Assembly: GCA_036785375.1 (NCBI GenBank)
Contig: JAWMAR010000030.1
Span: 992,001-1,056,000, forward strand
DNA length: 64,000 nt
Source: Leucoraja ocellata
Lineage: Eukaryota
Direction: 5' to 3'
Part shown: positions 5,061 to 58,495 of the stretch, in pieces
Layout: every line of letters begins with the position of its first letter
Numbering within the stretch: the stretch's first letter is position 1
Position numbers and translations under genes: made by a program
Notes under the pieces: model-generated
Seen by the model: the letters and a program-made list of their open reading frames with translations, nothing else
Told to the model about the DNA's origin: nothing
Databases searched by the model: none

Positions 5061-5654
5061 GGAGGTGGGGAGGGGGGGGGGGGGGGGGGGGGGGGGCAGG
5101 GAGAAGAGAGAAGGGAGTGCATCCTTCATTAAGCTCCTGCACAATTTAATTAGCTGCAGTGGTTTTCTTCGAATTGCACAGGAGTACAAAAAAAAAATGC
5201 TCAGCACGTCAGGTTCACCATTCCGAGTGATCGTGTCTGATCCTGTCCTTCAAGTCAACCGTTGACTGAGATGGCTGATGCCTATAATATTAGCTCAGCT
5301 TGTACTTATAGTTTTGTCACTTCTCGCTGGGAGCGGAGGGTGTACTCAGACTGATCTGCTGAGATTTTTCTCCTGCTCTGAGTTTTGAAACTTCCACATT
5401 CTTTGTCTATCCGCTGGCCCTCCCCGACTGCTCCAATTCACCCATTAACCAAACAACATTGTTTACAGCTTTTATCCCCCGTAATCACACTGGTTTCAAG
5501 CTACCAGACACTTGCCCCAAGCCCCTTCCTCTCTGCAACTCGACAAGTTATTTTGTTTCCTTTTTAGTTCTCACCTGCCGAGTATTTCCAGGATATTCCA
5601 TTTTTCATACTAGGACAAATTCCTTGAGGTGCTACATGAAGAGTGCTTTCAACA

Positions 5655-11923: not shown

Positions 11924-14900
11924 AGTAACACTTCAATCTCTGACATGACTCGGTTTACCATACAAATGGAACTCCAATGTTGCAAGTTATTACTTCTCCC
12001 CTGAAAGCTTGTTTATCTACCTTCAGCAAAATGAAAGGGCAGACACAATTTCATGCAATGTTAGTTTCAAACCACTGGTTCATTAACGATATTAATTCTT
12101 TGATAAGTACACATTTTAACATGACACATTGGAGTTATATCTCTGAACAGAGTTTGGCAATTATTAATATTTGACAGAATCAGATCTTAAGTGAATCAAT
12201 TAAACCAGCTTTCACAATTTTAACAGAGATAACTGCTTCAGACTACAATTTCTACACGACAAAGACGGCCATTCAGCTTTTTTGAAACTTGACAGGTCAA
12301 ACAAAAAGCGAAACAAAAAGCACCTTCTAACCATCATCTCTCCTCTTTACTTGTCAGATTTACTTTACTAGTGTCTCCACTGAAATGTATTCCCCGTGCC
12401 AACTGCCACAAGGTGATTTTTCATGTCTTGTCAAAAAATATCTTCTATTCGTTCCATATTAACATGTCACATTTGGTGATCAGGCCATTTCTACAGACAT
12501 AGATGGGCATGGTGCTCATGATGGTGTGGCTTTCATGTCCACATGATAACAAAGGTCAAATCTGTAATGTCAGTGTATTCAATGCATCAAATAGATTCAT
12601 GGCAAAAACGCAGAAATTGGTTTTGCTGTGAAAGTGTTGCAAAGAGGTATCATTGCAAATTTTAAATCTCAAGTAATCTTTTCTATACATTTAAGTATCA
12701 GGTCTCCTTGACTCCTGCTACACATGAGTAGCCAATACATTTTCGAACTGTTTCCAAGTGTGAAAATGCCCAATTTCTCAAACCATTGAAACATTTGGCA
12801 AAGTGATCATGGGGAACTTCTGAAGTTCAGCAAACTGCATCACTGTTCATGGACACTGCTTCATTTCACAAGAGATCTTTTTATTAAGCCTAGATATTTT
12901 GTAGCACTCAGGAAACACACAAACATTGACTGAAGTTATTCTAAGTCCCATCAAGTCCTCTAGAGAAAACTGATGACAAACGGATCTGCTTCACTGAAAT
13001 ATTACTTGAAAATGCATTCTGTTTAATACAGAACAAGCAATAAAATTACACATTAAAAATCAAATGGAAAATAGAACTGAAGGTGCATGCCTGCACATTC
13101 TGATACACATAAAATTAAAACCTGAAGTAAAATAATTAATTAATTGATAAATTGGGCAATTATACAATATGCTGCTTTGATGATGGCTTTGAAAAGTAAC
13201 CCATGAAAGTACTAGGCTTGCAAGAGTAAAATAATAAGCTTTTCTTGCTTCCAAGTAAGAATTTAATTGTTCCATGACAACAAAACACTGGACTCTCGAG
13301 TTTCCACCTCTGCTCCACAATCCCAAAACTGAACTGAACCAGGTCCTCGGAGTGACTGGTCAATCCCCTTACTCTTGGTAATTGTGACTCACTAAGTATT
13401 GGAAACTTCACGTCTTGTCTACTTTTTAACCGGTAAACAATAGTTAATTACTGCTAGTTAAAGTAACAATGAAAGGAAACACTGTAGATAAGTCAATAAG
13501 TCCTGGAATTCGTCAATAGATCAGGCTGCATCGGTGGAGTGAGAAGTAGTTCATATCAACATGGTTAAAGAACGACTGGCATGTTTGGCTTGATGAACTC
13601 ATGGCAAGAGGCAGTCCATCAGGTTTTAATAATTGAAGGTTTTTTAAACATAAAATTAAAATTGATCCTCTCTGCAATTTGTCTCTTAATCCCAACATTC
13701 TGAATGAGGATCCAGACCTGAAATGTCCTCTGGAGATGTTGCCTGATCCACTGCCTTACTCTACCACTTTAGTGTTCCACACATTCTTTCCCACCATTTA
13801 CTCTCCCTCCTTGATTTAAGATCGACATGACCCAGTCTGTACTTCCTTCAGTCTCTATCCTATTAATCATACAGTTATTACAAATATACAAATGCCCACA
13901 CTCGTGCAGAATACAGATTAACTACAAAAACCAACATGCACATTTAGTTGTTTGACACATCATCTTCCCTACACTACAGAGGGCAATCAGGAAACTGCTG
14001 AACCAAATATTAAAATCTAATCATATCAAGTGCAGCTAACAGCAGATACAGTTATACAGTACATCTTGCTTCTGTGCATTACAGACCAAATAAATTACAT
14101 ACACTGTCTGAAGGACAAATCTTGGTCAGCATAGACAGGTTGGGCCAAAGGGTCTGTCCCTGCGCTGTGTAACTATGAAAATATAGCAACATTCAAGAAT
14201 CCTAGGCACATTAAGTATTCACTATTTCATTTTATAACCCCGAAGGTCAACTAAAAACTAAAACACGGAACTGTAATTAGTATCCAAATGCAGTCCATTT
14301 CTATCACTATTTAAAGTGTTTTTTTTATTAAAGTAATATTCTGTAAATCTACACATCACTTTTTTTTATATCATTCATTTAACAATCTTAATATTCACAG
14401 CATTTAACTCACGTTGCTACAGTTAGTCTTTGTTTGCAAATCATCTCGAATTTAGGAACCTAATGCGCAAGTTCCGTCTACAAAGGATATTTTTCAAAAA
14501 TAATTTCACTAAATTAAGGAGGCATTTGATGCAGAACCAGATCCCCAAGGTTCAAACAAAAAAATGCTGTAACAAAGCCTTGATTAGACAGTCAAGTTAT
14601 ATTTGAAAACATTTACCGACAACCATTCATCCAGAGACTAAGAACAATCCCCGCAGTTATTTTCTTTTAATTTAGGAAATGCAAAGAACACATAGTGCTA
14701 TGTAGTGCTCCATAATGTTGAATTATTTTGTTCTAATCCATTTGCAACATATATTTTTTTGATGGGTTCGAGCTTTTAAAAACATGTACATCCCAAAGTT
14801 TAATTCAGTGCTTTGTATGCTCATTTAGCAACTTGGTTAGACTGCATTAATATACTAAGTTTTCGCTCTCTGCATTCCTGTGTTTTTCTGCCTCAATTAC

Positions 14901-36261: not shown

Positions 36262-37725
36262 CTTGATGCGAAAAAGAGTCCGCTGGCACTTTTGGCTCAG
36301 ACATGCTCTCAGATCGGAAAACCAGACCCCCCTCCGTCCTCCAAGCTCACGTCTGTGACTTCAAACGGGACGAGTGACAAGGAGTCCGGAAAATCCGCCC
36401 CGTTGAAACTTAGTGATATCGGCGCGGAGGACAAGTCGAGTTTTAAGCCGTACTCCAAGCACAACGAGAAGAAGGAGTCCAGTTCGTCGGGATCGTCGGG
36501 CGGGTCTGGAGAGAAGTCTGGTTTCCGTGTGCCGAGCGCCACCTGTCAACCATTCACACCAAGGACAGGCAGCCCCAACTCAAGTACCTCCTCGCCCATG
36601 CCCTCCGACGGCAAAGGCAGCGACAGTCAGGAGAAGAAAGACATCGACTCCGTGAAGAACAGCTCCAGCGACAACGGCACAGCCACCAGTGTCGGCCACA
36701 ACCGGATTAGCGTCAACTGCGCTGGGATAAACGTGGAAGTGAATCCACACCAGGAGACTTCGGTTTCCAAGCCCATTATTTCGGAAGCATCGGCTCTGGG
36801 CTCTGGACTTGTTGCCCCTGTTTCGCCCTACAAACCCGGGCAGACAGTCTTCCCGTTGCCCCCGGCAAGCATGGCCTATCCAGGAACACTCGGTGCCTAC
36901 GCCGGCTACCCGCACCAGTTTGTACCGCATGGAGTCAGCTTGGACCATGCCAAATCCAGCCTGGTCGGGGCGGCTCAGCTGGCCAGTTCTCTGGGCTGTG
37001 GTCTGTCCGGCAAGCCGGCCGGTTCCAGCCCACTAGCCGGCGCCTCTCCACCCTCCATGATGACGGCCAGTCTGTGCAGAGATCCCTACTGCCTCAGTTA
37101 CCACTGCGCCGCGCACCTTGCCGGGGCGGCCAGCAACTCTTGCTCCCACGACCCCACCGCTCTCAAGACTGGATACCCACTGGTTTATCCCTCTCACCCC
37201 CTCCACGCCGTGCACACGACCATGGCCAGCAACGCTGGCACGCCGACCCTGACGGGCCACCATTTGTACCCCTATGGTTTCATGCTTCAAAACGATCCTC
37301 AGCCGCATATCTGCAATTGGGTCTCGGCCAATGGACCATGCGACAAGCGATTTTGCTCCTCAGACGAACTGCTCAACCACTTGCGGACGCACACTGCTTT
37401 CTCCGGGACTGACAAACTGATGGCCGGCTATCCTAGCTCGTCCCTGGGTAGCGCGGCGGCAGCTGCTGCTGCAGCAGCCGTGGCTTGTCACATGCACCTC
37501 CCGCCTACAGGGGCGCCGGGGAGCCCCGGAGGTCTCACGTTAAGGAGCCCCCACGCTTTAGGACTCAGCAGCAGGTATCATCCTTATGCCAAGAGCCCAC
37601 TGCCGACCCATGGAGGTCCAGGACCGGTCACCACTCTCCCAGTGCCGGCAACAGGACATTATTATTCCCCATACGCACTCTACGGCCAGAGACTAACAAC
37701 AGCTTCAGCATTGGGCTACCAGTGA
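36262..37725 (+). CDS. znf503: Zinc finger protein 503, coding exon 2 (Sp motif, FKPY motif, buttonhead box, single C2H2 finger, C-terminal YSPYALYGQRL)
   Basis: LDAKKSPLALLAQTCSQIG (Sp motif 36277-36318), FKPY (36442-36453), FRVPSATCQPFTPRTGSP, VAPVSPYKPGQTVFPLPP, CRDPYC (37075-37092), finger CNWVSANGPCDKRF..ELLNHLRTH (37312-37392), ending RLTTASALGYQ-stop. Total protein is 564 aa. Confidence 0.97.
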   Translation, partial: LDAKKSPLALLAQTCSQIGKPDPPPSSKLTSVTSNGTSDKESGKSAPLKLSDIGAEDKSSFKPYSKHNEKKESSSSGSSGGSGEKSGFRVPSATCQPFTPRTGSPNSSTSSPMPSDGKGSDSQEKKDIDSVKNSSSDNGTATSVGHNRISVNCAGINVEVNPHQETSVSKPIISEASALGSGLVAPVSPYKPGQTVFPLPPASMAYPGTLGAYAGYPHQFVPHGVSLDHAKSSLVGAAQLASSLGCGLSGKPAGSSPLAGASPPSMMTASLCRDPYCLSYHCAAHLAGAASNSCSHDPTALKTGYPLVYPSHPLHAVHTTMASNAGTPTLTGHHLYPYGFMLQNDPQPHICNWVSANGPCDKRFCSSDELLNHLRTHTAFSGTDKLMAGYPSSSLGSAAAAAAAAAVACHMHLPPTGAPGSPGGLTLRSPHALGLSSRYHPYAKSPLPTHGGPGPVTTLPVPATGHYYSPYALYGQRLTTASALGYQ

Positions 37726-41856: not shown

Positions 41857-42279
41857 TAATTTGCATGTGTTCGGGTCTAATTCAGACATGTCACATGTAG
41901 GACAATGTTGGCGATGGGAAGTGGTGAGTTGTCTGTAGAATTTGTGGAAACTGCTCGTCCACAAAATCCACAGACGACTCACCACTTCCCATCGCCAATT
42001 TTCAACAACAAAGGTCTTCGGTAAACAGTAATTAATCTTTGATTTTTTTAATGTCAACCCGTTCATTTGAAAACAATGCGAGCAAAACCAACCAAATAAA
42101 TTGTCACGCAGAGATTTATTCCACCATTTATTCTATATAACTAGGCTGGACACGAAACTAAGACATATCTCGGTATTTTGTGGTTGCAAATAGCGCAATT
42201 AGAATCGAGTTTGAGTGAATTTTAAAATGAATTGTTGAATTGTTTTCTCTGGAACGCCGGTGGCGGAGAGCAGTTTAAT

Positions 42280-43647: not shown

Positions 43648-43845
43648 AAGAGGGCGGTGGAGACAGGTTCTCTGGATGCTTTCAAGAGAGAGCTAGATAG
43701 GGCTCTTAAAAATAGCGGAGTCAGGGGATATGGGGAGAAGACAGGAAAGGGGTACTGATTGTGGATGATCACCAATGATCACATTGAATGGCGGTGCTGG
43801 ATTGAAGAGCCAAATGGCCTGCTCTTGTACCTATAGTCTATTGTA
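43648..43845 (+). mobile_element. CR1/HER1-like LINE 3' end
   Basis: agagggcggtggag..ttcaagagagagctagataggg..ggggatatggggag..gatcacattgaatggcgg. Confidence 0.8.
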
Positions 43846-45220
43846 AGACACTTCTATAGATGTCGTCGCTGAGTCTGCAGCAACAGAACTTTGATTCAAC
43901 ATTCAAAGACTGTCTGCAATTTGCTACATTCCCAACAATAAGTCCATGCATGTCAATGCTGCAGCCATTGATTCAATTTTAGGAGCGTAACTATTTTACC
44001 CATTGCAAGCTCTGTTGGGGCTATCAATGTTGCCTGGGCATTAGCACATAACAGATTTTATCTTTGCCTTGTCTGGAAATTATCAAATCAGTCAAGATTT
44101 AATCCCAAGGTCACACTCTGTGGACGGATGGCAAATGAAACGCACTTGGTTCCTGGCATGGTAACCTTGTCCCCACCCAGAGCAGAGCAGAAAGTGCAGT
44201 TTCCTGGCCCGGGACCAGATGGTAGGTAGGCAAGGGTCCTGTACAGGCTCAATCCTCAGAACTGGGTGGTTCTGATTCCTTGGCATAAGATCCAGGATAT
44301 CTTGCGTCCAATGCAGTCTGTGGGCTTCCGAGGTACTGATGAGGCCAAAGTGGGGAGTGGACTCTTCCGTAGATGGGGCAGGTTGGCCGCCAATAGGGTG
44401 GGCATGTGGGCAGTTATGCCTTGTGGCGCATCTTCCACTAGGGATGTAGGCCATCCATGTACTCCTTATGTAGGAGCTCAAAGTCCGCAATACTCTTCTT
44501 CATTTTGGGCAGTCATGAGGTTGGGAATCTTTGCCAATGGAAATTTGCCTTTTATGTAAGGAGGTTTCAAAATGCCCCTTTTCAGCTTACTATTTCATAA
44601 GTGTCTTTGAGCACATCAATTTAAATACCAGATCTTGAACACAAATGAGGAGTTTGAGTTCTGTAAATGCAGACACAAGTAACTACAGAAGCTGGTTTAC
44701 AAAAAAAGACATTAAATGCTGGCATAACTCAGTGGGTCTGGCAGCATCTCTGATTTACAAAAAAAACACAAAATGCTGGAGTAACTCAATGAGTCATACA
44801 AAAAAGGACACAAAATGCAGCCAATGTCCTTTCAAGGGTAGATTATATTTCATAGGAAAACATATTTTATTTGTTTTGGAAGATGTACAAGAAGACGGTT
44901 GTCTGCTTGGTCATTACATCCTATGACAAAGATCAGAAAACAAAATGTTCCAGGAGTCTGGTGTCAGGCATGCAAACAATGTAGCCAGGCCCAAGCCACA
45001 GACGGCGTGGAATTAGGGTCTCAGTGCTGAGGTCTTGGCCTGAGAGAGGACGGGTTTGCTGGTCCTTCCAGTGAATTTGGATGATTTTGCATGAAATAAA
45101 GTGGCAGATTATTAATTTGTGGTTCCAGGGTGCAGGTGGTCCCACTATGTGATGAATGGTTATATGTTGGTGGCACTATCATTGAGTACTAAATACCATA
45201 TACTTGTTGATTACCAGCGC

Positions 45221-45615
45221 ATTCATGTCTACAAAGCCCTCAATGGGCTTGCCCCCACCTACATTAAAAGTCTGCTCACCCACCACACCATCTCCAGGTC
45301 CCTCAGATCGGCTGACTTGGGGTTGCTGAATATCCCGCGGTCTAGGCATAAGCTCAGGGGCATCCGCACCTTTGTGGTTGCAGCTCCTAGACTGTGGAAC
45401 AGCATCCCTCTTCCCATCAGAACTGCCCCCTCCATCGACTCCTTTAAGTCGAGACTAAAAACTCATCTGTACTCCCAAGCCTTTCTTGACGTCCTCTGAG
45501 CGAGGGCTATATGTATATAGTTTGTTATACTATTCTTATACCAATGTAAAGCACTTTGGCCAACGAGAGTTGTTTTTTAAATGTGCTGTATAAATAAATG
45601 TGACTTGACTTGCTT
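45221..45615 (+). mobile_element. L2-clade LINE 3' fragment
   Basis: YKALNGLAPTYI..RSLRS..FVVAAPRLWNSIPLPIR..SFKSRLKTHL is a typical L2 ORF2 C-terminus. tgtaaagcactttg..aataaa with a (gactt)n tail. Confidence 0.8.
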
Positions 45616-45744
45616 GATAGTGTAGGTTTCAGTTGGTAAACAGCGTGTGACTGGCAATGGCATCCACCTCAGGTGCTAAACAGCACATAGCAGGAAGTCA
45701 TAAACTCACAAAGGGTTCCAACCTGATAACATCATTTGGGCCTC

Positions 45745-46095
45745 AGCAGAAAAGCTGCTGCATCACGGCCCCAGAGACCAGGGTTGGATCACCATCTCAG
45801 GTGCCCTCTGTGTGGAGTTTGCACGTTCTCCCCGTGAAGGCTTGGGTTTCCTTCTGGTGCTCCGGTTTCCACCCACATCCCAAACACGTGCGGGTTTGTA
45901 GGTTAATTGGCCTGAGTGTGCAGGGAGTTGATGTGAAAGTGGGATAGCAAAGAACTAGTGTGAACGGGTGATCAATGGTTGACCTGGACTCAGTGGCCAA
46001 AGGCTCTGTTTCTACGCTGCATCTTTCAACCAATTTCTCCATTTCCGTCCACAGATGCTGCTTAGCCCACTGAGTTCCTCCAGCAGTTTGTTTTT
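45745..46095 (+). mobile_element. HE1-like SINE plus a short Penelope-like repeat fragment
   Basis: gtgtggagtttgcacgttctccccgtg..ggtttgtaggttaattggc, then gatgctgc..gagttcctccagca. Confidence 0.7.
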
Positions 46096-46689
46096 GGCCA
46101 TTAACTCACTATGATAGTTTTGGTTTGTAAATAGTACAAAAGCTTCAGTTGGTAAACAGCAAGTTAGTCTTGGTTATTAGCTCATGGCACCACCTCCAGG
46201 TAATAAACAGCATGTCACTGGTAGTTATCACTCCATGGTTATTGATTCCAAGTACCATCTGCAGCTGGTAAACCAAATGTGCCTGGTTGATTTTAGCTTG
46301 CAGCATGAGCTCAGGTGGTTAGCAGCACATGACAAGCGGATATTAGCTCCAAGCATGGCTTCAGGTTGCAAACTGTACATGATGGATGGGTATTAGCACA
46401 CAGCACAGCCTGAGGTAGAAACTGCACAAGACTGATATTCATTTGATCTTGGTCTGGATTCAGAAGCTAGGCAGCAACCAGTGGCGATGTCCTTGCAGTG
46501 TAGACTTCACCTGGCTAACACTATGCAATTGGTGCTTATGAGAAGGGGGTTATTAGATAATGGCTTCAGTGTCTGATATTATCAGCACACCATGGATTCT
46601 GATAGTAAACAGTATGTAGTGATCAGCTTGCGATGCCAGTTTAAAATGTCAAACAACATGTGGATTTTGGTTGGCAGCTCACTTTGTGT

Positions 46690-47835
46690 CTTCGATTGGC
46701 AAATTGAATATGACACTGTGATTGCAATCCAACGGCCCTGACATCTAACATTATGAGGTGCATTAAGAGACTGGTTATGGAACACCTCATCTCCAGTCTC
46801 CCAGGCAGCCTTGATCCATTGCAGTTCACCTATCGTGCAATGGCTCCATGCCAGACGCCATCTCTCTGGCGCTACACAGTGCAAGAATACCTAGCTATGT
46901 CACATGCATAGTTTTTTACTATTGCTCTGTCTTCAACACTATAGTCCCAACAAAGACATCCCCAAACATCTGGGTCTAGTCCCTGGCTATAGTCCCAACA
47001 AACCCATCTCCAAGCATCCCCCTCTGCAACTTGATCCTTGACTTCCTGAACCACAGACCACAATCAATAAGGATAGGTGACAAAGCATCCTCCCTGATAA
47101 TTCTCCACGCTGGTGACCCACAAGGATGTGTTTTCAACCCCTCACTATGCTCCCTGTGCACTCACGACTGTGTGGGGGAAATCACAGATGAAATCACCAT
47201 CGCGGGCCGGATCTCAAATAACAACAAGGGGAAGTACAGGGAGGAGATAGAGAGCTCAGTTACACGGTGTCAAGATAGCGACCTCTCCCTCAGTGTCCAC
47301 AAGATGAAGCAGCCAGGCATTAACTTCATGAAGTGAGGTGGTGTACAGGCCCCTGTCACAATCCATATTGCCTAAGTGGAAATGATCATCTTCAGGTCCC
47401 TAGGTGTAAATATCATCAAATATTTGTCCTTGACCAACCATGACCTTCAAGCTGCCCAGGGAAAGCAGCTAACATAATCAAGGACCACTTGGAACCTGCT
47501 CATCCCCTTAAATCCTCTCCTGAGAGCTTGAAAGGAGGCCCCATTGATTCAGAAACAGCTTCTTCCCCACTGATAGCAGGCTGCTGCAGTCCTCCCATAA
47601 GCAAGGTATTAGTCTCGATCTTCCAACCTACTTAATTGTGGACCTTACACTTTTTTTAAACTACACTTTCTCTGCGACTGCAAAGTATATTGCTGCAACA
47701 TGATATTCTGCACTCCAATATCTCTCACTTTGCAAAACCTTTTGTGTGGTGTATTATGGTTGTGGTGTGGTTGATTATCCTCATGCACTGTATGATTTGA
47801 CTGGATAGCACGTGTACACGTGACAATAATAAACA
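46690..47835 (+). mobile_element. Degraded Rex1/RTE-like LINE RT remnant
   Basis: [30 protein letters not shown] motifs. 3' end cacgtgacaataataaa. Confidence 0.65.
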
Positions 47836-49061
47836 ATAGAATACAATACTAGCTCTCAGTGTGAGCCTCCATTGGTAAACAGCATGTGACTGGTGATTAT
47901 TAGCTCTTGGTAAAAATCTCAGAACTAGCATTTGTTAATTTGCAGTGGTGAATAAGCTGGTAATCACCACGTGACGTTTTAATTAGCATGCAGTACCAAC
48001 TTCAGGTGGGAAACAACAGATAACTGGTTGTTATCAGGGAACATCATCAATTTCAAGTGATAAGCAGCACATGGTCAAAGCCTATTGATTCAGTCAAACT
48101 CCAGCGAGTAAACAGCACATCACCAGTGTACATTTGCACACGGTGTGGGCTTCAGGAGGTGTGCGGCTGGCAGCTACCAGTTTGCAGCATGGCCTCAGGT
48201 GGTCAAGAGCTCCCACAGGTAGTTACTAGCTCATGTAGCTGGTCTGAATTGGTAACTGAGCAGTGACCAGCAAACCGCACCCTGTGGTGTCCGCAGAGGG
48301 TGGCAACCAACATTTTAGCTCAACATGCCACCTTCAGGTGGCACATAGTTTAGACTGGTGGTTATCAGACTCAATTGGGTTTTGATTGGTAACCAGAACC
48401 CAATTATTTGTGCAAACTTCAAGCAACAATCAGCTGATGGGTATTGGCTTACATCATCGATTTAAAGTGGTAAGCAGGACGTAATTGGTGGTTGTTAAGT
48501 TGTGCCATCCATCTTGAGCTGGTAAAGGAGCATTTCTAATGGCCAATAACTAATGGTATTGATGCTAGATTTGGATGGTAAATAGCATGTGACTAGTGTC
48601 TGCTTGCACCATCTTTCAGAGGTAACAGTGAGAGACTGACAGTCATTAGTTCATGTCACTGTTTCATGTGGTGAACAGCTGAGGATTATTAGGTATAGTG
48701 TTGGCAGTTATTAGCTCGTAACTTCATCTTGAGATTTTCTTTGGCACATGACTGGTGTTTGTAATCATGAGCTGGCAGCATGATTTAAGGCAGTCAATGC
48801 CTATGATAGGACTATTGGCACAGGTTACAGCTTATCCGCAGAGCAATCCTAGTCTCACCCTGTAAGGAACATCTCCCTTGTCATATCCATCCCTTCTCAT
48901 CCTCTTTGCTTGATACCAGCTTTTTTTCTCTCACTCTTTTTCCAGTTACATAGAACTTATAATGACACATAGATAGAACATATGGAATCATTTACATCGA
49001 ACATATGATTGCAGATGACAACAAGATTTCTGGGGTCAGGGACAGTGAGGATATAGTGATA

Positions 49062-50095
49062 TAGGAAAGAACTGCAGATGCTGGAAAAAAGTATGGTCTT
49101 GACCCGAAACGTCGCCCATTCCTTCTCTCCATAGATCCTGCCTCACCCGCTGAGTAACTGCAGCATTTTGTGTCTACTTTTGAATTTACAAGATTCTGAA
49201 GAAGGGTCTCAACCCGAAAGGTCACCCATTCCTTCTCTCCATAAATGCTGCCTCACCCACTGAGTTACTCCAGCATTTTTTGTCAACCTAAAGCAGGATA
49301 TAGATCGGGGGGTGGGGGTTGAAATGCCAAATGGAGATTAATCTGAGCAAGTGTGAAGTGTTACACTTTGGGTGGTCAAATATAAGGGGAAAACTGTACA
49401 ATTAAAGTCATGACTCTTAACAGCTTTGATGTACCAAGGGATCTTTGGGTCCTAGTCCACAACTACCTGAAAGTGGCAACACAGTGGTGGTAAAGAAGGC
49501 ATATGGTATGCTTGCTTTCATAGGTTGAGGCATTGAGTATAAGACCATTTGAAGTATTGTGTCCAGTTCTAGTCACCACATTACATTTCTCGTCGCCCCA
49601 TTATGAAGCCTTTGGAAAGGGAGCAGAGGACGTTTACCAGAATGATAACTGGATTAGGAGGTATTAGCTACAGGGAGAGGTTGGACAGACTAGGATTGTT
49701 TTCTCTAAAAATGCTGTTGGTTACAGAGAGACCTGATAGAAAAGTACCTAAAATGATGCGAGGCATAGATAGGGTGGACAGTCAGAACCTTTTTCCGAGG
49801 ATGGAAAATCAAATGTTGGAAAACATAGATTTACAGTGAGAGGGGCACATTGTAAAGAAGATGGGCAGGGCAATTTTTGTTTACATAGAGGGTGATGAGT
49901 GCCTGGAATGCACTACTGAGGGTGGTGGTTGAGGTAGATCTGACAGTGGCATTTAAGAGACTTTTGGACAGGCATATGGATATGCGGGAAATTGATTATG
50001 TGTTGATAGACAAGAGATGGTCTCGACTTAATGTTCAGCACAGACATTGTGGGCCGAAGGGCCTGTTCTTGTGTTCTACTATTCTATGTTCCATA
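49062..50095 (+). mobile_element. Penelope-like repeats (49062-49290) inserted in a CR1/HER1-like fragment
   Basis: Tandem and inverted family repeats. CR1 translation LEREQRTFTRMITGL..SYRERLDRLGLFSL and AWNAL..VVE..FKRLLDRHM. Confidence 0.75.
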
Positions 50096-50832
50096 AAACA
50101 GTAGAGCACAGCAACAGTGTGTAATGGACAAGCAGAACTATACCCAATACTCCAAATGTGGCCTAACCAAAGTCGTATAAAGCTACATCACGACTTCTTC
50201 ATTCATATCCCTTCACCGACCAAGGCAAGCAGACCATTTGCTTCCTTTACCAGTATATTAGTTCTGTGCTGCTTTCTTCTATGACTGTGTAAACAGACAA
50301 TATCTGGAGGTTATTATTCACAGTACTGGCCTGCTTCTTAAGCAGTCCCTCGGGATTTAGAATGACTCTCTTCCATTCTAATTCCATGGGTTTCAAGGTG
50401 ACCTGTGAGTCAGTGTAGGACCAGAGGTTCTGCATGTGTGAGACAGGCAGTGTTAGATGGGAAGGTGTTTACTATGTAAAGTGTCAAACTCCTTAGTCTG
50501 AAGAAAGGTCTCGATCCAAGATGTGACCCATTCCTTCTCTCTAGAGATGCTGCCTGTCCCGCTGAGTTACTCCAGCAGTTGGTGTCTATCTTCCTTGTAC
50601 ATTAAGCTTCTTTGTGCTGACCAGCTTATTTGGTCTCAAGATTCTCAAAGTTGCCCTAAATAATCTTTGTCCATTTTGAGCAGCCAAAAGACATCAGGGA
50701 TTCTCAAGGGCTGATGGAGATATCCTGCTCTTTCAAAGAGACTTTTTGAGAACATCAAGGTATCATTCCCTCTTCAGCCTGGTAACTTTTCCATGTGACT
50801 GCATTCAGTAGTGTTTAAGTTTTTGGAGTCTG

Positions 50833-51106
50833 GTTTAGAGATGCAGCCTGGAAACAGGCCCTTTGGCCCATCAAGTCCATGCTGACCATCAACCTACCCG
50901 CATCCTACACACGAGGGACAATTTACAGAAGCCAATTAACCTATAAACCAATTAACCTTTGAAATGTGGGAGGAAATCAGAGCACCCGTAGAAAACTCAA
51001 GCGCTCACAGGGAAAATGTACAAACTCTACACAAACGGCAGCTGAGGTCAGAATCAAACCCAGGTCTCTGGCGCTGGGAGGCAGCAGCTCTACCACTGTG
51101 CTGCCC
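50833..51106 (-). mobile_element. HE1-like SINE
   Basis: Reverse-complement SINE: gccaattaacct..tgtgggaggaaa..caaactc..gcagcagctctacc. Confidence 0.75.
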
Positions 51107-51714
51107 ATATTTACACCTCTTGGACATGTAAATGGTGCAGTCTGCTCATAGAAGCCAACTGAGCATATTGGGCAAGGTGAGAGGACGCTGATGTCATCCC
51201 ATTTATTCTGCCCGGCTCCACGGCAAACGACACACGATGGATAATTGACAACTAATGGAGTTGGTTTAACGTGATAAACATCATGGGATTAGTGGTTATG
51301 AGTTCACAGTGTCGGCACCAACTAGTAAGCAGCATGTGACCAGTAGTTATTAGCTCCTGGTTCTGGATTCAGGTGGTAAACGACATATGACAGGCATTTA
51401 CGAGCTCATGGTGCAGGCACTGGTTATAAACAACACATGACTGATAGTTATTAGTCACAGTATTGGCTTCAGGTGTTAACAGCCAGTCACTGGCAGTTAT
51501 TAGCACAGGGTGCAGGCTTCAGTTTGCAAACGATACGGGCGGATGTTTATTAGCATGTGATGCCGGCTTCAGATGATAAATGACACAAGGTGGTTATTAG
51601 TATGCAATGCCACCTCTTCTTTTAGGACCCTGTTACTAGTGGTTATTAATTTGTGATGCCTGCCTTGTGTTCACTATCGACAGCTAATGAGAGATGTCTC
51701 CACTTCATCTGTAC

Positions 51715-52020
51715 GCTCACAGTCTTTTTCCCCATGGTAGTGCATTCGAAGACTCGGGCAGAGGCTTAAGGAGAGGAGGGGAAAGATTTAAGAGGGACCC
51801 CAGAGGCAACCTTTTCACACCAATGGTAGTTTGTATCTGGAAAGAGCTGCCAGAGGAAGCTGTAGAAGCGGATACAGTTACGACTTTTAAAAGACATTTG
51901 GACAGATATATGGATAGGGAGGATTTAGGGGACCATGGGACATATGGAGGCAAGTGGAACTAGTCCAGTATGTCTGGACAAGGTGGGCCGAAGGGTTTGT
52001 TTCCTTGCTGTACAGCTCCA
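51715..52020 (+). mobile_element. CR1/HER1-like LINE 3' fragment
   Basis: GERFKRDPRGNLFT..WKELPEEAVEA..FKRHLDRYM. Confidence 0.8.
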
Positions 52021-52262
52021 CAACTCCACTAGTCTGCCATATAGTTGCATAGTCTCATTTAAGGAAATAGTTGTATAATTTTTTTTTAAATCACATGATA
52101 AGTGGTAACATTGTTTGTGCATTCAGCCTCATTAACATGGAAATAAATTATTGGCCCCTAATATCTGCCAGCTCCCAGCAGAGAAATCTCAGCAATCCCA
52201 TTCTCCTTTCCCCTCCAGCCTTCGATTCTTTTCTCTTTCTCTCTTAATTGTCTATTAACTCT

Positions 52263-52550
52263 CACAGTGGGGCAGCGGAAGAGTTGCTGCCTTACAGCAC
52301 CAGAGGCCTGGGTTCAATCCTGACTGCGGATGCTGTCTGTACGCAGTTTGTACTTTCTCCCTGTGACCCCATCGGTTTTCACCGGGTGCTTCCGTTTCCT
52401 CCCACACTCCAAAAACGTATAAGTTTGTATTAAAAAAATTGTAAATAGTCCCTAGTGTATAGGGTAATGCTCGTGTTCACTGGTTGATGATCACTGGTTG
52501 GTGAGGATTTGGCGGACTGAAGGGCCTGTTTCCACGCTGTAACTCTAAAG
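52263..52550 (+). mobile_element. HE1-like SINE
   Basis: gagttgctgccttacagc..gggttcaatcc..ttcctcccacactccaaa..gaagggcctgtttcc. Confidence 0.8.
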
Positions 52551-53583
52551 TCAAAACTCTTCTTGGATTTTTTGCCATTTATCCAGATGAGGAAGTAATT
52601 TCTAAAAGCAAGTCGACAGACCAGCACATCTTTGGGATGTGGGACTATGCTAACAAAGCCAACAATGATCTATAATAAAATCAATTAATCATTAAAACCC
52701 AGTCAGGGACAACGTACAAATAACTAAAATGTATCACTCGTACTCCACGACATTTCTAATCAAGATCATTGCTGTCTTGGGTTTGCTATCCAACCTGTTG
52801 ATTTCCATCTATGTGAAAAATATATAATTTAATGGTAAAGTCAACACATTTCTGCTATGTTCTAGGTCCCTGTATCCTATAACTTGCTGATTTCTAATCT
52901 TATATTCTAACCATTGCAAAAAAGCATTTTCACAAGATTTTTACCATACCATTAATATTCTCAATATTATTTAACAGCCGAGATGCCATATCTTATTTAC
53001 TTAGTTGGTCTACGTTATACTTCCTTGGGTCATGATGTCTCCTTGTAATGTGCTAAGATCTGCACACATCATTCAGGGCAGGGTGGATGTCACCCCATCC
53101 GCTTCATCAGACGTATTATATCCTTAAGTCAGAGGTTCTGAGCTTGTACCTGGCTTTTTCACCAAACGTGAATTTTATGCATTGTCTGAAGAAGGGTCTC
53201 AACTATTCCAACTCTCCAGAGATGCTGCCTGTCCCGCTGAGTTACTCCAGCATCTTGTGTCTATGACGATTATGCAAGTGGTTTCAAGACTCTCTCAACT
53301 AAAAGTTGATGATTATTCTCCAGGTAAATGTTTTGCATTTGCGGTAATGTATTTATCATATGGTTTGCATACATTTGCATTTCTTTCCATTAAACAACAA
53401 TGCTATATTGTTAGAATCTAACCCACTGTCTGTCAGATGTGATTGCAACTTGTTTGTCTTGTTTCTGTTGTCATCCATCTCATTTTATGATAAAATGTGG
53501 ACATGTTTCTACTAACCTTTTCTCCTAATAATTTTCCTGTATTACAGTTACAATGATACAAATGTTCGTCCAGTGAACTTTCC

Positions 53584-53654
53584 CAAGGAATGACTCTCTA
53601 AAATTCAGTCTGAGGTTCAAGGAATTGCTCTCTGAAATTCAGTCTGAGGTTCAA
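53584..53654. repeat. 34-bp tandem duplication
   Basis: caaggaatgactctctaaaattcagtctgaggtt / caaggaattgctctctgaaattcagtctgaggtt. Confidence 0.85.
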
Positions 53655-54399
53655 AGTGCATTAATAACGTTTGATACAACAAAGGAATACTACACTAGCT
53701 TTTCCAGAGAAAGTTTGTATATCAGTAATGCTGCAATTTGACTTTTCACTACATGATAATTTCCTAGATGATTGGTGAAACTACATATAAGATAACCGCA
53801 TGATCAGTGCTGCCCTCATTCAAAAGGCCGAGGAATGCATACTTTTTCCATGGTGTGTCTGAACGAAAGCAACATTACACTGACAATCTCAAATATGACA
53901 AGGTTATTCATGATTTATACCAATTTTTAATAAGTTATAACAATCTATTCCTAACAAAGACATACTATACTTGAAGAAGAGTCTTGACCCAAAACGTCAC
54001 CCATTCTTTCTCTCCAGAGATGCTGCCTGTCCTGCTGAGTTACTCCAGCATTTAGTGTCTGGGGGATAACCTGCTTGTGCCCATGTATTTTAAATAATTC
54101 TCACTACTGATACAAGTCAAGTGTTGATGGGCACGCTCAGAGGAGTTCAGACCTGTGACCACCTACACTCAATGTTGTATTAGTACATCTTGCAAACACT
54201 GTGTACGAATGGTGGAGGGAATAAATGTTTAGAGATAAATAAATGACGGTGCAGAGTTTTAATGGATGGTGACATCTCTGAATGTCAACGTTAGATGGTT
54301 GGATTCTCCCTGGTTGGAACTGAGTATGTCTTGGCACATTGGTAATGTTAATGCAATGTGACTGAACGTTACCCAGAGCACCCTGCACTTAGGTATTGA

Positions 54400-57329: not shown

Positions 57330-58495
57330 TTTACCATTGTCACATGTACCAAGGTACAGTGAAGAGCTTTTGTTTGAGAGCTCCTCAGTCAAAGAAGACT
57401 TCACCTGATTACAATCAAGTTATCCACAGTACACAGATAAAGGATCAAAGGGTACAGCAGTACAAGATAACGTATAGTTCAAAGGACACTAGTACGGTAG
57501 ATGGGAGGTCAGGCTCCTACCCTAACTGAAGGGAGCACCGTTCAATTGCCTGATGAAAGCAGGAAAGAAACTGTCCCTGAATCTGGAGGTATGCATGTTA
57601 AAATTTCTGTACCTCTTACCTAATAGGAGAGGGGAGAAGAGGGAGTGACCGGTATAAGGTTACACAGAAAAGCTGGAGAAACTCAGCGGGTGCAGCAGCA
57701 TCTATGGAGCGAAGGAAATAGGCAACGTTTCGGGCCGAAACCCTTCTTCAGACTGATCGGGGGTGGGGGTGGGTGGGGACAAGAAAGGGAAAAGGAGGAG
57801 TAGCCAGAAGGCTGGAGGGTGGGAGGAGACAGCAGGGGAGCTGAGGAAGGGGAGGAGACAGCAAGGACTAACAGAATTGGGAGAAATCGATGTTCATGCC
57901 CCCGGGGTGCAGACTCCCCAAACGGAATATGAGGAGCTGTTCCTCCAATTTCCGGTGCTGCTCCCCTTCCTCAGCTCCCCTGCTGTCTCCTCCCACCCTC
58001 CAGCCTTCTGGCTACTCCTCCTTTTCCCTTTCTTGTCCCCACCCACCCCCACCCCCGATCAGTCTGAAGAAGGGTTTCGGCCCGAAACGTTGCCTATTTC
58101 CTTCGCTCCATAGATGCTGCTGCACCCGCTGAGTTTCTCCAGCTTTTCTGTGTAACCTTCGATTCTCCAGCATCTGCAGTTCCCTCTTAAAAACAGTGAC
58201 CGGTATAATATTGGTTCTTGATTATGCCACTAGCCTTGCCGAGGCAGCATGAAGTATTGATAGAGTCAATGGAAGGGTGGTTGGTTTGTACGATGGTCTT
58301 GGCTACCTCCACAACCCTCTGCAATTTCTTGCAGTCTTTGATGGAGCTGTTCCTAAACCAAGCTGCAATGCATCCCGATAAAATGCTTTCTCCTGCGCAT
58401 CTGTAGAAGTTGATGAGGGTTGTTGGGGACATGTCGAACTTCCAAAGTATTCCAAGGAAATAAAGGCTTTGGTGTGCTTTCTTGACCATGGCATT
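57330..58495 (-). mobile_element. Rex1/Babar-like LINE 3' fragment, host of the Penelope insertion
   Basis: KKAHQSLYFLGILWKF..ESILSGCIAAWF..LQRVV at 58195-58495. Continues at 57655-57330 to the ttgtcacatgtacc..acagtg 3' end. Confidence 0.75.
57656..58194. mobile_element. Young Penelope-like insertion with perfect 199-bp inverted repeats and TSD
   Basis: Arms 57656-57854 and 57961-58159 are reverse complements. Spacer 57868-57960 (-) encodes QHRKLEEQLLIFRLGSLHPGGMNIDFSQFC*. agtgaccggtataa is duplicated at 57644-57657 and 58195-58208. Confidence 0.9.

Follow-up and report, generated by a model that had tools for sequence, protein, structure and literature searches.

A decayed 51-bp tandem repeat array at a single locus downstream of znf503 in Leucoraja ocellata, probably the relic of a CpG-rich minisatellite

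Downstream of a NocA/Nlz zinc-finger gene, znf503, the genome of Leucoraja ocellata contains an array of 51 base pair (bp) tandem repeats. We have analysed it in a stretch of 64,000 nucleotides (positions 992,001 to 1,056,000 of contig JAWMAR010000030.1, assembly GCA_036785375.1), here called the window, whose own coordinates are used throughout. The array lies between 45102 and 51665. Its units diverge from one another in a star-like manner, their CpG dinucleotides have decayed on both strands, other elements have inserted into the array, and its recent change is near neutral. We consider it probable that this single-locus array began as a GC- and CpG-rich minisatellite, that its units have not been homogenized for more than about 150 million years, and that it now drifts without function.

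A repeat of this period in five blocks downstream of znf503 had been proposed from inspection of the sequence, and the five blocks are borne out, together with a sixth remnant. In a lag test that uses no seed, identity is highest at a lag of 50–51 in every block as first drawn except block 2, which peaks at lag 40. The 300-bp windows of 46101–46500 and 51101–51700 lie more than 2.5 standard deviations above the mean for the 64 kb. Repeat families with a spacing of 50–51 bp surface without seeding. A two-unit model gives 26 matches in the window, all on the plus strand and all within 45617–51659, and a circular profile divides the array region into units. With the profile trained on blocks 3–5 only, block 1 scores 40 bits and block 2 scores 61 bits, compared with a maximum of 20.4 bits in a null of 538 tiles; the 32 training units score 16–46 bits when each is left out in turn. 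Outside the array no tile of the window exceeds 20.4 bits against the unit. Candidate remnants at 44908–44954, 50772–50801 and 51125–51151 were dropped, as their 11–15 bits lie within the null. The TAAAC-like anchors of the original prediction are found where it had placed them, but its count of 35–40 units was too low. The aligned bases total 2,244, corresponding to about 44 unit-equivalents (approximately 2.2 kb, with a few weakly scoring block edges counted in). Unit spans vary from 44 to 52 and the pairwise alikeness of units is only about 55%. Tandem Repeats Finder (TRF), suggested earlier as a check, does not report the array at score 30.

All six pieces are on the plus strand. Block 1 (45102–45220) has about 2.3 worn units, the last of which is cut by the 3′ fragment of a long interspersed nuclear element (LINE) at 45221–45616 (plus strand). 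We take this to be of the L2 clade from the look of the end of its second open reading frame (ORF2) and not from a library match. Block 2 (45617–45738) follows, and then two high-copy short interspersed repeats (45744–46098). Block 3 (46095–46714, about 11 units) and block 4 (47847–48835, about 18 units), both delimited by model matches and the profile, flank a decayed LINE (46761–47846, plus strand) that has reverse-transcriptase-like fragments by eye and no Pfam match. A stack of interspersed repeats resembling LINEs and short interspersed nuclear elements (SINEs) at 48978–50255 is followed by the sixth remnant (50256–50332), which has about 1.3 units, E = 0.0056, and a score of 28 bits compared with the null maximum of 20.4. 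Another two short interspersed repeats, separated by a short spacer (50484–51112), precede block 5 (51216–51665), with about 8.5 units and the most regular period. Thus the five blocks stand as predicted but the end of block 3 does not, since it extends to approximately 46714, and the remnant had been overlooked.

The L2-type fragment interrupts one unit in register, as had been noticed earlier. A contig from organism F, which is about 7% diverged, joins 45220 to 45617 without the L2, whereas in organisms C and D the sequence continues into it. The register of the split unit and the L2-free contig indicate that the array is older than the L2. The L2 is young, and so it does not of itself make the array ancient. 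The remaining gaps between blocks are occupied by high-copy repeats, and indels of 2–9 bp occur inside units.

The array was found at just two places in the 3.44-Gb assembly by BLAST and six sequence patterns, termed C30 and C167. The C167 copy of the znf503 gene and array encodes an identical protein and has 97–99% DNA identity, and is likely to be the second haplotype. Over 3075–64000 of the window the two differ by approximately 1.3–1.9% outside the gene, a high value for two haplotypes from a single vertebrate. In the C167 copy a unit is interrupted at 46615 by an insertion of 218 bp (L030, about 5217–5434) that the C30 copy lacks. It begins TGTGGTG and ends CACCACA, which we presume to be ends like those of a solo long terminal repeat (LTR). 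Four patterns of 23–26 letters, allowing 3 mismatches, matched 2, 2, 5 and 5 array units per assembly copy, and at none of the 27 other matched loci examined was there a neighbouring unit. Matches outside the array numbered 8 compared with 0 in the control for one pattern, and 18 compared with 36 for another; as single short matches without tandem neighbours they were not accepted as further arrays. Exact and gapped patterns found this locus alone or nothing, no further units were found in 180 kb of flanking contig, and the depth of the array bins in four runs is that of a single copy. Dispersed copies, which the original prediction proposed to seek, were not found in this assembly. The searches would very probably have picked up an equally large array elsewhere, although remnants of a few units could escape.

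Restoration of lost CpGs gives an ancestral unit of 51 bp with five CpGs, four in the linker and one in an E-box. Its GC content of 59% contrasts with the 41% of the region. At five pairs of columns, TG and CA both occur while CG is seldom found, for example columns 20–21 (TG 15, CA 11 and CG 3 in 44 units) and columns 43–44 (TG 18, CA 16 and CG 2 in 46 units). Since TG and CA are both present and CG is rare, methylated CpG has been lost on both strands. Columns 26–27, 29–30, 4–5 and 33–34 were not counted as former CpGs because their TG and CA are lopsided. The observed/expected ratio of CpG is now 0.28 in the array compared with 0.48 in the window.

The units differ from the restored unit by 27% outside CpGs, a Kimura two-parameter (K2P) distance of 0.34. 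Adjacent units have an identity of 0.570 compared with 0.554 when permuted (p = 0.058), identity is 0.548 within blocks and 0.545 between them, and the spread of pairwise identity is 0.078 compared with 0.075 in column shuffles. No subfamily structure is seen among the units, and their descent is star-like. As neighbours are hardly more alike than other units and there are no subfamilies, the array appears to have been uniform once and not to have been homogenized since. PMC13100897 gives a synonymous divergence (dS) of 0.06–0.11 separating the whale shark from the zebra shark across approximately 50 million years, implying a shark rate of 0.6–1.1 × 10^-9 per site per year. At such rates the decay would have taken 310–570 million years, and at 2.2 × 10^-9 about 160 million years. 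As a rough estimate it would span more than 150 million years.

The history may then have run as follows. Slippage or unequal exchange would have multiplied the unit in place to at least 44 near-identical copies. Methylation in the germ line would have destroyed its five CpGs, and point changes and indels would have ended further exchange between units. Transposons would then have broken the array into its six pieces.

The original prediction saw a repeated grammar of forkhead (FOX), E-box and TAAT sites in the units, with a ZEB-type site; we use these names as presumed identities. Retention was measured in the 35 units having 35 or more aligned columns. It is 0.79 for A/T columns, 0.67 for G/C columns and 0.46 for former CpGs, and is even within each class (heterogeneity p = 0.14, 0.50 and 0.26 respectively). 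The words singled out earlier as best kept are the A/T-rich part of the unit. Since A/T columns decay more slowly and the linker was CpG-rich, the apparent grammar is largely explained. FOX is intact in 11 of 48 units (12.2 expected), ZEB in 8 of 48 (7.2 expected) and ATTA (TAAT) in 19 of 49 (18.7 expected), and not one of 33 units has all four sites intact. The E-box CATGTGAC arose by CpG decay from CACGTGAC, whose E-box (CACGTG) is intact in one of 47 units; any CANNTG is present in 14 of the 47. With even decay within each class, motifs lost at the neutral rate and an E-box that arose by decay, the proposed grammar is not supported. The FOX, E-box and TAAT look would be a residue of decay, in which A/T columns have outlasted G/C and CpG columns. 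The prediction was right that GCATGTGAC occurs as an inverted pair in the znf503 promoter (35261 plus, 35302 minus). The two sites, upstream of the gene and 32 bp apart inside a zone of low variation, match only the decayed form of the site in the array. Because the CATGTG of the array is a decay product of CACGTG, the link made by this 9-mer is weak.

Recent change was examined at 46 variant sites, of which 26 came from the variant rows and 30 from comparison of the two assembly copies, with 10 shared. Of these, 44 map to columns of the unit, 27 in motifs and 17 outside; 54% were expected in motifs (p = 0.37), so recent variants do not avoid the motifs. Between the assembly copies the array has 26 differences in 2143 positions (1.2%). 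Local unique DNA has 115 in 6982 (1.65%; p = 0.16 compared with the array), whereas the znf503 region has 29 in 4989 (0.58%; p = 0.007). The segment 28001–38000 around znf503 contains no interspersed repeats, differs by 0.2–0.7% between the copies, and is likely to be a constrained regulatory zone. A smaller dip, to 0.65%, is seen at 12001–14000. In four other organisms the divergence of array-dominated and non-array contigs respectively is 2.4 and 3.1%, 2.8 and 5.2%, 5.0 and 5.2%, and 6.5 and 7.3%, among the listed pieces and leaving out those with about equal parts of array and repeat. Recent change in the array is therefore near neutral, with small residual slowdowns.

Several observations weigh against simple drift. 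The array changes less than local repeats between the assembly copies (1.2 compared with 1.95%, p = 0.03), and in each of the four runs array contigs are slightly less diverged than non-array contigs, an effect that is significant in X10 alone (p = 0.0003; the non-array contigs are largely pieces of transposons). In organism F, block 5 has 33 differences in 669 positions compared with 103 in 1420 for block 4 (p = 0.046), and just 2 of 438 bases in block 5 differ between the assembly copies. The motif expectations are computed from the average rates of the array itself, and the 26 sites from variant rows draw on 40 of the 620 rows. Retention outside CpGs is 0.76 in motifs and 0.67 elsewhere before correction for column class, and among G/C columns those in motifs are kept better than the rest (0.71 compared with 0.62, p = 0.02), an excess that has p = 0.07 when columns adjoining CpGs are removed. 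The motif columns were themselves picked in hindsight for being best kept. The small slowdown of the array may be due to its lower CpG content.

If these signs reflect function, some of the array, with block 5 the likeliest candidate, might have been co-opted to enhance znf503 weakly, by way of the FOX, E-box and TAAT sites that survive. The array is 7–14 kb from a developmental gene for which PMC3551757 describes conserved enhancers, block 5 changes slightly more slowly, ATTA is kept in six of its nine units, and one of ten folded strands, in block 5, has z = −2.65. Yet the units of block 5 resemble the ancestral unit no more than block 3 does (0.743 and 0.741), their FOX is intact in two of eight and their ZEB in one of eight, and the low-variation zone of the locus is at 28–38 kb rather than in the array. 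On the sequence we have, such an enhancer would be quite improbable. The bolder proposal that a CpG-island-like minisatellite with FOX, CACGTG and TAAT sites expanded early in cartilaginous fish, acted as an enhancer and still works in block 5 would be just as doubtful. A rather better candidate, although still unlikely, is that the array was the internal or subterminal repeat of one ancient transposon (Helitron-like, LTR-like, or like a miniature inverted-repeat transposable element, MITE) or of an integrated virus, the rest of which has decayed; it would be equally functionless. All copies look equally old, as they would after one insertion, the unit was GC- and CpG-rich within a 41% GC region, and transposons are a known source of minisatellites (PMC9659126). 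No second array was found in the genome, however, and none of the 27 other loci has a neighbouring unit. There was no transposase or viral Pfam domain in the six frames of 43801–45242 and 51661–54062, viral contigs gave no match, and metagenome contigs gave one lone match, without tandem copies, taken as chance. An end-like inverted repeat around the array was not seen among the 25 longest of 240, and ends this old would no longer be visible.

A dead coding repeat, with 17 minus-strand codons in each unit, is the least credible origin, and we regard it as highly improbable. The unit length of 51 is divisible by 3, and restoring the CpGs leaves one frame open, on the minus strand, contrary to the earlier statement that all six frames have stops. 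Among shuffled units, however, the mean is 3.3 open frames and 99% have one or more, so that an open frame is no sign of coding. There is no codon-position pattern (0.74, 0.75 and 0.70), unit spans vary between 44 and 52, and the flanks have no Pfam match. An array of structured RNA is not supported: the 20 weak Rfam matches in 38–58 kb include none inside the array and none at the gathering score, and nine of ten strands fold like their shuffles. Of the interpretations offered by the original prediction, the decayed minisatellite relic survives, while the homotypic enhancer, boundary and structured-RNA arrays gained no support from any test run.

The closest likeness to the minisatellite relic that we favour is with the single-locus GC-rich minisatellites (variable number tandem repeats, VNTRs) of vertebrates, which share the one locus, head-to-tail units of tens of bases and, when young, a GC- and CpG-rich composition. 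The array differs from these in showing no sign of copy-number variation, in its six transposon-separated pieces and in being invisible to TRF. The central repeats of Helitrons and the minisatellites derived from Alu and LTR elements, as presented in PMC9659126, also have a once-uniform array of a mid-length unit, but here we found no parent element, ends or dispersed copies. Homotypic-cluster enhancers and the Nolz-1/Znf503 enhancers UREA and UREB (PMC3551757) share the nearby gene and, in the array consensus, words resembling FOX, E-box and TAAT sites. Both UREA and UREB lie upstream and are conserved, whereas the array lies downstream, shows no preferential keeping of its motifs and remains more variable than the constrained zone of the gene. 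No description of the array was found in the literature, including the accessible portions of PMC10587355 and bioRxiv 10.1101/2025.06.08.657570, in a search that left most subscription journals and supplements uncovered.

As a fossil, the array provides a clean local record of neutral decay, with about 44 replicates of a 51-bp sequence in a slow-evolving lineage. It also provides a caution, since AT-biased decay and CpG loss can give a dead repeat an apparent motif grammar. Were block 5 an active znf503 enhancer, the array would be of greater importance, as a case, and one that can be dated, of a tandem repeat giving rise to an enhancer within a developmental regulatory block.

Elsewhere in the window, exon 2 of the NocA/Nlz gene lies at 36262–37725 on the plus strand (Pfam nlz1, E = 1e-22); the name znf503 follows the original prediction. 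A search of the assembly with the exon 2 protein gave two matches only and no second Nlz gene or znf703-like paralogue, which may reflect a limit of the search. At 53584–53654 there is a younger repeat with a 34-bp unit (2.1 copies, 91% match) that is unrelated to the 51-bp array. Long hairpin-like stretches at 41907–42001 and 57765–58000 have weak matches to microRNA models, far below gathering scores, and are possibly inverted repeat pieces.

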